Shown here: positions 30,272-32,402 of the stretch, piece by piece
How the letters are laid out: the number at the start of each line of letters is the position of its first letter
Numbering within the stretch: position 1 is the first letter of the stretch
Sequence record: NC_101837.1
DNA from: a phage
Direction: 5' to 3' (one strand)
Length of the DNA stretch: 64,000 nucleotides
The notes under the pieces: generated by a model
Told to the model about the DNA's origin: nothing
Database searches by the model: none
What the model saw: only the letters and a program-made list of their open reading frames with translations
Position numbers and translations under genes: made by a program

Positions 30272-30774
30272 AGCTGCCTCCTCTTCAAGTTATAGAAAAA
30301 CTCACTGTATCGCTTTGTAACGAGCTTTTCTATCAAACTGGTGCGATTGCATTACCTGGTATAGTTTATATAGCTGTGGAGCGATTTAGGGGCCTTCTTG
30401 TCAGTTTCCACACATAAACTTCATCCAAGCTCGCGCGGGAGACTCTCAACCGACTCCTTACGGCGCTGGCAAGCTTTCGTCGGTGGTCCACATCAGTGCT
30501 CGGCCTTTGGCCTGCGCTATCGCTTCGCTCCCACACATGTTAACAGACCTGCATGTATGAACTTCTGTTATTGTGTGCACCAAGGAGGCCCGGCATCTCG
30601 CCCCTCGTAGGCGAGTGCCAATGAAGGGCCGACACTGCCCATAGTAAGTAATAAATTTAAAACATGGTACTTAGGATCTAGTATATTCTACATAAGTTAA
30701 GTATATGTACTTAGTACCATAAGTACTAGATCTTTTATTTTTTATTATTTAGTTATTTTAGTTATATTCTTTAT

Positions 30775-30857
30775 GTGTCCGTATCACGGACAGTTAGTGT
30801 CCGTATTACGGGCAGATGTGTCCGCGTGACGGACAGTAGTGTCCGTATCACGGACAG
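30775..30857. repeat. array of four tandem 19-bp palindromic iterons (GTGTCCGTATCACGGACAG consensus), 21-22 bp period
   Basis: Copies at 30775, 30797, 30818, 30839; each an inverted repeat TGTCCGT-N3-ACGGACA; flanked upstream by AT-rich palindrome-containing tract 30651-30774. Confidence 0.85.
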
Positions 30858-30931
30858 TTAATAGTATCCGTTCCATGACGAACATAAAACATACGAATCC
30901 TTATAGTACAGATATTTAAGTTTTTACTGGT

Positions 30932-31282
30932 CTAACCAGTTGTTGACATCCGAATAACTTCTTCTGGTGGCAAAACTTTGGAAAATGTGCATCTTTTACC
31001 TCTCCCTTGTGTGGATGTTTCAACCACTCCTGCACATTCTAAAGTTTTAACGCACGCTGCTGCTTTTGTTTTCTTTATCCCAACATCTGCTGCAATTTTC
31101 CTTGTGCTTGGTGTGAAGCGTGAATTTCCTCCAAGCTTATACCAGTTGTGCAGGTAGCAGTATACGATCTTGTCATACAAGTCAAGAACAACAACCTCTC
31201 CAGTTGTGTCATTCAAAACTTTTGACATAGATAGTATTTCAAGGGGGACTTTAAGATATAGCAGCTTATCCCCATCTTTCAT
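30932..31282 (-). CDS. putative helix-turn-helix DNA-binding protein
   Basis: 116 aa; HTH-like segment TRKIAADVGIKKTKAAACVKTLECAGVV; stop lies ~75 bp from iteron array. Confidence 0.45.
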   Translation of the reverse strand: MKDGDKLLYLKVPLEILSMSKVLNDTTGEVVVLDLYDKIVYCYLHNWYKLGGNSRFTPSTRKIAADVGIKKTKAAACVKTLECAGVVETSTQGRGKRCTFSKVLPPEEVIRMSTTG

Positions 31283-31329
31283 ATCTCCTGATTCTCCTTG
31301 TGTGGCAATTTTCTTTAAAATAGCAGGGA

Positions 31330-31884
31330 TTACTCCCTGCTGTCAATATCAAAACTCATTGCAATACGGTATGCCTCTTCTAATGGTAAGAGTCTTCCCC
31401 ACACATCCCAACCGACATCAAGCTGCCTGCCAAACAACTGTTGTGTGGTTCCGTGAGCATGACCGAACAGTTGGACTGATCCGTGAGGCTTTCTGTTCCA
31501 CTTTGCAAACTGGTAATGGCTCATACAGATCAAATTCTTGTTGTGGCGAAGCTCGTAATAATCTACAACCTCATGACCGAACTCTTTCACAATTCTGACA
31601 GTCGTCCTTGTGTCATGGTTGCCACGAACAAGAATAATATGTCCGTTCAACATATTTAGAATATCTGGAAGTAAGTTGTTGATATTCTTATCATTAGTGC
31701 ACGCAATATCTCCCAAGTGGAACACAGTGTCTGCAGGTGACACAACAGAGTTCCACTCGGCGATGATTCCCGCATTCATACTGTCAAGATTGTGATCATA
31801 CTGAGATCTGTGTTTTTGACATGAATCAAACTCCATGACCCGCTGGTGGAGAAAGTGTGTGTCGCTTGTTACAAAGTATTTCAT
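31330..31884 (-). CDS. calcineurin-like metallophosphoesterase (candidate RNA 3'-phosphatase/cyclic phosphodiesterase)
   Basis: Motifs SDTHF (DxH), GDIA (GDxx), GNHD (GNH[DE]); start at internal ATG 31884 with GAGGA RBS just after stop of upstream gene. Confidence 0.6.
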   Translation of the reverse strand: MKYFVTSDTHFLHQRVMEFDSCQKHRSQYDHNLDSMNAGIIAEWNSVVSPADTVFHLGDIACTNDKNINNLLPDILNMLNGHIILVRGNHDTRTTVRIVKEFGHEVVDYYELRHNKNLICMSHYQFAKWNRKPHGSVQLFGHAHGTTQQLFGRQLDVGWDVWGRLLPLEEAYRIAMSFDIDSRE

Positions 31885-32302: not shown

Positions 32303-32402
32303 AGTGACCCTCCGTTTTAATTTCAACGGTAGTATACCTAACTGTTTTGTTAATTTCAAGTGTTGACACTAGGTTATTTGTGTGGCAGGATAGACTGACA
32401 AA

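Follow-up and report, generated by a model that had tools for sequence, protein, structure and literature searches.

What is the function of the 660-bp intergenic region at positions 30272-30931 of the phage sequence NC_101837.1, of which a stretch of 64,000 nucleotides (the window) was analysed here? The region carries four palindromic repeats directly beside an AT-rich tract, and a first-pass annotation had interpreted this arrangement as a replication origin similar to that of phage lambda. It is 100% identical to the corresponding region of Escherichia phage vB_EcoM_HdK5 (HdK5 in the following) and 90-100% identical in 118 GenBank records, which are essentially all Vequintavirus, i.e. rV5-like myophages of ~137 kb. 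The rV5 genome paper was unable to locate an origin, and none is described for rV5-like phages in the literature searched. On balance, and with some reserve, we favour the interpretation that the region constitutes an iteron-type replication origin module of Vequintavirus, which is probably an auxiliary one. The earlier proposal gained from the homology of the adjacent protein to a RepA domain, the joint exchange of protein and repeats in a relative, the extreme AT content, and the lack of an overlapping sigma-70 promoter; it is not supported with respect to membership in the lambda O/ori family or a position at a strand switch, and the module cannot be the sole, indispensable origin.

The palindrome array (30775..30860, no strand) consists of four 17-bp copies of TGTCCGT-N3-ACGGACA, located at 30776-30792, 30798-30814, 30819-30835, and 30840-30856 and possessing 0, 1, 1, and 0 mismatches, respectively. 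The 22-nt repeat units begin at 30775, 30797, 30818, and 30839; the resulting start-to-start distances of 22, 21, and 21 bp correspond to about two helical turns, exactly as initially described. When up to three mismatches were allowed, seven palindrome matches were found in the window versus 1.55 expected by chance. Outside the array, there is no site with fewer than three mismatches in the window, and none with at most one mismatch in the complete 139-kb HdK5 genome. In a comparison of seven relatives spanning the genus, 7% of the columns were variable in the array, 5.4% in the AT-rich tract, 31% in the spacer, 21% in a GC-rich block described below, and 18% in the leader; within the intergenic region, conservation is thus highest in the array and the AT-rich tract. 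Changes in the array affect mainly the central bases or the base beside them, and the core TGTCCG-N5-CGGACA is kept invariant. A degenerate fifth copy, which had been considered possible, is probably not a binding site: the sequence TATCCGT-N6-ACGAACA (30864..30883, no strand) has a spacer of 6 bp instead of 3 and lies within the variable spacer, the most variable stretch of all; it is therefore absent from most relatives, among them rV5, Aya, SYGMH1, ECP26, and JEP1. A few GenBank records mark the repeats as a bare "repeat_region", without giving any function.

The AT-rich tract (30645..30774, no strand; 130 bp, ~19% GC) adjoins the array and is a candidate DNA-unwinding element. Its HdK5 equivalent is the window of lowest GC content genome-wide, both for 100 bp and for 130 bp (19%; the next lowest values are 23-25%), which adds weight to the first-pass description of this stretch. 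The short inverted repeats mentioned there are present as well: the tract contains TTTTATT twice, TAGTTAT(T/A)T twice, and inverted repeats that are interleaved and in which GTAC and TAAGTA are frequent. In addition, the sequence GATCTTTTATTTT at 30729..30741 (plus strand) is an exact match to GATCTnTTnTTTT, the consensus of the 13-mers of E. coli oriC; the match is a lead and no proof. It is the only exact match in 64 kb, where 0.11 are expected, and a copy with two mismatches is located at 30675.

The location of these elements relative to the genes differs from what had been assumed. The flanking genes, in rV5 numbering ORF79 (31282->30932, 116 aa) and ORF77 (30271->29693), are both encoded on the minus strand and belong to a leftward block, which extends from a divergent switch at ~32360-32400 to seven tRNA genes and on to the lysis and terminase genes. 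Hence, the region is not the boundary between leftward and rightward genes, and the array is not positioned upstream of the gene for the 116-aa helix-turn-helix protein but 72-157 bp downstream of its stop codon and ~500 bp from the next start codon. Similarly, the region is a long non-coding stretch within the window, but not the longest one of the genome, which possesses one of ~2.5 kb outside the window. Two metagenome-derived contigs (L019 and L020), which carry variants of the 116-aa gene, end 168 bp and 113 bp after this gene, i.e. within the palindrome array or shortly behind it; short-read assemblies are probably interrupted by the tandem repeats.

Scans for sigma-70 promoters (threshold at least 9/12; confined to the sigma-70 type, with phage-specific promoter types outside its scope) and for intrinsic terminators gave nothing credible in 30272-30960, and no Rfam family was assigned to the intergenic region at gathering or E-value thresholds. 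The only good promoter is a sigma-70-like TTGACA-18-TATTTT with an upstream TG (31317..31346, minus strand) ahead of the gene for the 116-aa protein; in the rV5 record, the corresponding position likewise carries an annotated promoter of the sigma-70 type. Transcription starting there would cross the array and the AT-rich tract. These signals bear on a different explanation, according to which the array is an operator or roadblock: a winged-helix regulator of 116 aa, bound to the four palindromes, would modulate or block leftward transcription entering ORF77, the tRNA cluster, and the genes for lysis and terminase; this transcription would originate either in the regulator's operon or at a promoter of the AT-rich tract that has escaped recognition. 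Phage promoters are often found in AT-rich DNA, and one record contains a PhagePromoter call at ~30746-30753. However, the array lies downstream of the regulator's gene, far from the next start codon, and overlaps with no sigma-70 promoter; moreover, four phased sites beside the most AT-rich tract of the genome are the layout of an origin.

The 116-aa winged-helix protein itself (30932..31282, minus strand; the orthologue of rV5 ORF79) is homologous to an initiator domain. In a sequence search of the PDB, 4RO3 was the only significant match (E = 3e-6, improving to 9.9e-12 when a small profile was used). This structure represents the N-terminal domain of RepA from the Vibrio cholerae PLE, an initiator of the RepA_N family (PMC7145576). 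As determined by electrophoretic mobility shift assays and deletions, PLE RepA recognises the semi-palindromic iterons of its origin and is needed for origin function (PMC7145576, PMC8263062). A model generated by AlphaFold from a 7-sequence alignment reached a mean confidence (predicted local distance difference test, pLDDT) of 80; the single-sequence model was unusable (pLDDT 39). Foldseek matched the full-length fold to the N-terminal RepA_N domains 4PQL, 4PT7, and 5KBJ (E = 2e-4 to 2e-3, 114 columns), whereas the sequence similarity to the staphylococcal RepA_N proteins of pSK41 and pTZ2162 is not significant (E ~0.8). In Pfam, the protein has sub-threshold matches to DUF6945 and HTH_36; up to E = 1, neither Phage_rep_O nor RepA_N was matched. 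PHROG 12838, to which it belongs, carries the label "replication initiation protein". The family is nearly confined to Vequintavirus; word-index and exhaustive protein searches gave 5 and 8 matches, respectively.

For a regulator it could be argued that many records label the protein "putative transcriptional regulator", that generic winged-helix repressors (LexA, MarR, CRP, and CodY) are the next-best matches with respect to both fold and sequence, and that the protein lacks an effector domain. Against this stands the result that initiator domains, and not regulators, were matched by the fold over its full length and gave the only significant sequence match.

A divergent relative of 137 kb (IMG/VR UViG_3300010279_000001, L027 in the following) allows best to track which elements belong together. 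In L027, ORF77, the phosphoesterase gene, and the GC-rich block (at 83% identity) are still present, and the three parts between them are replaced. The homologue of the 116-aa protein is 143 aa long and 28% identical (E = 7e-7); the repeats are five different palindromes, ATCTGATRCA-N4-TGYATCAGAT, with spacings of 22, 34, 21, and 33 bp; the AT-rich tract (17% GC) is non-homologous and occupies the same place. Because the three parts are replaced together, we conclude that protein, repeats, and AT-rich tract travel as one cassette. In agreement with this finding, RepA_N domains and origins are likewise exchanged together among PLEs (PMC8263062). The first-pass suggestion that the product of 30932..31282 is the cognate binder is now well supported as a prediction, due to the homology to the PLE RepA domain and the co-exchange with the repeats in L027. 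Note that the AT-rich tract was re-created in the swapped cassette and not inherited, which speaks against an operator array; altogether, we regard the latter as a rather unlikely explanation, although it is the chief competitor of an origin.

Other relatives were less informative. No GenBank phage contains a match to the L027-type protein, and within the genus the co-variation of protein and repeats gives no information: even where the protein identity falls to 87%, the half-sites do not vary. When genome and metagenome collections were scanned with 18-mers, mostly chance matches were returned, among which local BLAST left few true homologues. In Seunavirus (Salmonella phage SPLA5a, L009 4036-4353, minus strand), a distant homologue of 105 aa is located at a divergent strand switch; it directly adjoins two 20-bp direct repeats AGCCTATGCTCAAATTGATA (4367-4480) and an AT-rich tract. 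In this sister genus, the locus may correspond to the module described here.

Several observations weigh against the interpretation as an origin, and some of them stem from a transposon-sequencing preprint on the near-identical Vequintavirus Bas54 (10.1101/2025.11.20.689424), in which array and AT-rich tract correspond to positions around 132.7 kb. The ORF79 orthologue bas54_0212 was classified there as "Intermediate" (17 of 20 TA sites hit; mean count 13.6 versus 140-190 for the neighbours), and so was bas54_0213, a small open reading frame over the array (window positions 30784-30885; 4 of 7 TA sites, mean count 18); ORF77 is non-essential (10.1101/2025.11.20.689424). Insertion counts are thus reduced about 10-fold for gene and array alike, and the neighbouring genes are non-essential. 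The similar, moderate defect of gene and array fits a common pathway, but since both are dispensable, the module cannot be the only initiation route. A moderate fitness cost of a non-essential gene and array would also be expected for a regulator. The preprint further reports zero insertions in a ~2-kb intergenic region between convergent units, which its authors termed functionally important (10.1101/2025.11.20.689424). According to the annotated gene coordinates (92785-95298), this gap comprises ~2.5 kb; it lies outside the window, and its HdK5 equivalent is 137891-139328 plus 1-1504. It contains TTTACA repeats with a period of 16 bp and several GGCAACTAT palindromes, and it competes with the module as a candidate for the main origin or for pac.

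Further points on this side concern protein and motifs. The domain match spans residues 8-110 of the 116 aa, and nothing follows; the protein consists of the N-terminal DNA-binding and dimerisation domain alone. The missing C-terminal domain is thought to serve RepA_N initiators in replisome recruitment (PMC7145576). The 13-mer match is a post hoc motif, and no cluster of DnaA boxes, as expected beside such a 13-mer in an oriC-like origin, was found in the region: there is no perfect DnaA box, and the best candidate is a single 8/9 match at a distance of 320 bp. A GC-skew analysis, which had been recommended as a check, placed the cumulative minimum at the strand switch at ~32360-32400, 1.5 kb from the array. 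However, the skew follows gene orientation across the genome, as the rV5 authors found likewise; since it reflects the direction of transcription, it cannot discriminate and was not used as evidence.

In phage T4 (oriA, oriE, oriF, and oriG) and in phage T7 (primary origin), the loss of origins is tolerated and other initiation routes exist. Dispensable origins of this kind would fit the "Intermediate" class of the module, which by analogy is most likely one of several initiation routes, i.e. an auxiliary origin. The parallel is limited, as the T4 and T7 origins depend on promoters and R-loops and not, as proposed here, on an iteron-binding protein.

The same insertion data argue against the region being a packaging site. 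In that case, repeats, AT-rich tract, and GC-rich block would form a pac region, the small DNA-binding protein would direct the terminase, and satellite-like plasmids would have copied a part of the region for being packaged. In lambda cosB and SPP1 pac, repeats beside bendable DNA are indeed bound by small helix or winged-helix proteins, and rV5 DNA is circularly permuted, which suggests headful packaging. Yet the initiation of packaging should be essential, whereas gene and array tolerate insertions in Bas54; the large terminase gene is 4.3 kb away, separated by the lysis genes and seven tRNA genes, and the 116-aa protein matches initiator domains and not small terminases.

A second candidate binder, the product of 28493..28828, is in a different situation: in Bas54, the orthologue bas54_0220 proved essential, with insertions at 1 of 20 TA sites (10.1101/2025.11.20.689424), but nothing ties this protein to the repeats. 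The gene (28493-28828, minus strand) encodes a protein of 111 aa, which is very basic at its N-terminus (KKRRRRGRP) and acidic at its C-terminus; it is assigned to PHROG 3330 of unknown function and may be the small subunit of the terminase or a DNA-binding factor of another kind.

The AT-rich tract is immediately followed by a conserved block of hairpins that is rich in GC (30380..30640, minus strand; 55-62% GC). Circular E. coli "plasmids" of ~13-14 kb, and one of 39.6 kb, contain partial matches of 85% to this block in their non-coding region (L021 3003-3310; also L022, L024, L025, L148, and L168); NZ_CP020521.1 is an example of the 13-kb plasmids. The proteins of these plasmids include a major capsid protein, a baseplate protein with 54% identity to an HdK5 protein, another one with 48% identity, and a relative of the tape-measure protein; the plasmids are probably satellites of Vequintavirus. 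Their version of the block consists of hairpins arrayed in series, with TGTGTGTGG(G) between them. The order of block, AT-rich tract, and lineage-specific repeats recurs both in L027 and in the plasmids. A comparison of phage and plasmids revealed compensatory changes: in a 6-bp stem, three pairs are changed on both sides and pairing is 100%, and two further compensatory pairs were seen by eye in the 5' hairpin. Within the genus, RNAalifold computed a positive, i.e. unfavourable, covariation term and a single compensated pair for the block; its folding energy is not exceptional (z = -1.4 and -1.6), and no Rfam family was matched. The block looks like a cis element recognised by the helper and is possibly a priming or replisome-entry signal, a non-coding RNA, or a packaging signal. 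For packaging, it could be added that the block is common to 13-kb plasmids which encode capsid and tail proteins without an annotated terminase. The plasmids, however, possess the block but not the TGTCCGT-N3-ACGGACA palindromes, and we consider a packaging site very unlikely.

The plasmids also encode a winged-helix protein of 303 aa, which has no detectable relationship to the 116-aa protein. A 25-mer, CTTNTAACAATTCTCAAATATCA, is common at 96% to all satellite-like plasmids and the large non-coding region of the phage (HdK5 (L012) 27-51, corresponding to L014 38896-38920; plasmid L023 518-542); it could be a promoter or a packaging signal.

The existence of satellite-like relatives which share the neighbouring non-coding DNA raises the question of whether the DNA-protein complex serves another purpose, such as competing with satellites whose origins are of the RepA_N type, defending the phage against them, or organising the genome locally, without any initiation. 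A precedent is Odn of phage ICP1, which reuses a RepA_N-like domain as an anti-satellite targeting module (PMC8263062). Here, however, the sites are located in the phage's own genome beside the gene, the gene contains no nuclease or other effector domain, and the plasmids do not carry the palindrome; such a function seems scarcely probable. A more elaborate scheme combines hairpin block, AT-rich tract, lineage-specific palindromes, and RepA_N-like gene to a modular initiation cassette: an initiator reduced to the DNA-binding domain would mark the site, the block would be read by the replisome or primase of the phage or by its packaging machinery, and undescribed, plasmid-like Vequintavirus satellites of ~13 kb would have copied the block in order to exploit their helper. 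This scheme is speculative and, taken as a whole, unlikely.

How would an origin of this type compare with known systems? It shares with the PLE the tandem, semi-palindromic repeats in a non-coding region, which are predicted binding sites in our case, as well as the exchange of DNA-binding domain and repeats described above. In contrast to the PLE, there is no C-terminal replisome-recruiting domain, four 17-bp palindromes at ~21-bp spacing take the place of three repeats of ~30 bp, the carrier is a 137-kb lytic myophage and no satellite, and the module is non-essential according to transposon sequencing, whereas PLE replication needs RepA and the iterons. For the staphylococcal RepA_N replicons (pSK41, pTZ2162), whose N-terminal domain is matched by the fold in full length, it is known that dimers bind inverted sub-repeats of the iterons (PMC7145576). 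Two of the three testable features of RepA_N replicons, the domain and iterons near the rep gene, were found here, and the C-terminal domain was not. In the staphylococcal replicons, the iterons are situated inside the rep gene and the proteins possess a host-specific C-terminal domain, which distinguishes them from the module.

Lambda ori consists of four dyad-symmetric repeats, which are bound by dimers of the winged-helix N-terminal domain of O, and an AT-rich tract, with transcription passing nearby. The likeness to lambda ori claimed by the first-pass annotation holds for the layout of four dyad-symmetric repeats adjoining an AT-rich tract. It does not extend further: repeats and AT-rich tract are intergenic and downstream of the gene instead of being inside the initiator gene, the protein has no Phage_rep_O match, a P-like helicase loader was not identified, and lambda ori and O are essential, unlike the module. 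The order of iterons, AT-rich tract with GATCTnTTnTTTT, and GC-rich segment resembles iteron plasmid origins such as RK2 oriV and the unwinding element of E. coli oriC. In contrast to these, a perfect DnaA box is missing, the initiator is unrelated to Rep_3 or TrfA, and the GC-rich segment, unlike that of RK2 oriV, is a conserved hairpin block common to satellite-like plasmids.

Based on these comparisons, initiation at this origin could proceed as follows. The RepA_N-like protein would be made early from the sigma-70-type promoter at 31346-31317, and its dimers would bind the four phased palindromes downstream of their own gene, as homology and cassette swap suggest. Four dimers on one face of the helix could bend or stress the DNA and, helped by read-through transcription, open the AT-rich tract with its 13-mer, where the primase-helicase and polymerase of the phage would enter. 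Because the protein is a DNA-binding domain only, the recruitment of the replisome must use another partner or a DNA structure; the GC-rich hairpin block on the far side might, speculatively, act as the priming or loading signal.

If this interpretation is correct, the module is the first origin proposed for rV5-like phages, which are widely isolated and used against pathogenic E. coli. An origin module and a cognate protein of exchangeable specificity would provide a handle for engineering these phages, e.g. for constructing replicons, controlling copy number, and interpreting marker frequencies. The RepA_N-type class, so far one of Gram-positive plasmids and Vibrio satellites, would then also comprise large lytic coliphages, where it would occur in a minimal form with a single domain; this raises the question of how replication is started by a DNA-binding domain alone. 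In addition, the hairpin block which phage and plasmids have in common hints at a helper-satellite system of E. coli that is so far unstudied.

Some observations made in the vicinity are of a different kind. The large terminase gene (24929-26476) is one uninterrupted open reading frame of 515 aa in the window; it is annotated in rV5 (L004 28-2873) as three joined pieces around an HNH homing-endonuclease gene, and the HdK5 annotation (L013 40432-43841) divides the region into several separate genes, one of them for a putative recombination endonuclease. At 27825-27923 (minus strand), there is a tRNA-like gene of 99 nt, for which ARAGORN gives a four-base anticodon (atcc); elsewhere it is labelled "tRNA-OTHER" or "tRNA-Lys", and the Rfam tRNA model is silent at the gathering score. 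Finally, 18 records named "Campylobacter phage" (MG0656xx, e.g. MG065635.1 and MG065652.1) are ~99% identical to E. coli Vequintavirus here, and the PLSDB entry CP057073.1, an "E. coli plasmid" of 137.6 kb, is a Vequintavirus genome; mislabelling, contamination, or a carrier state probably accounts for these entries.
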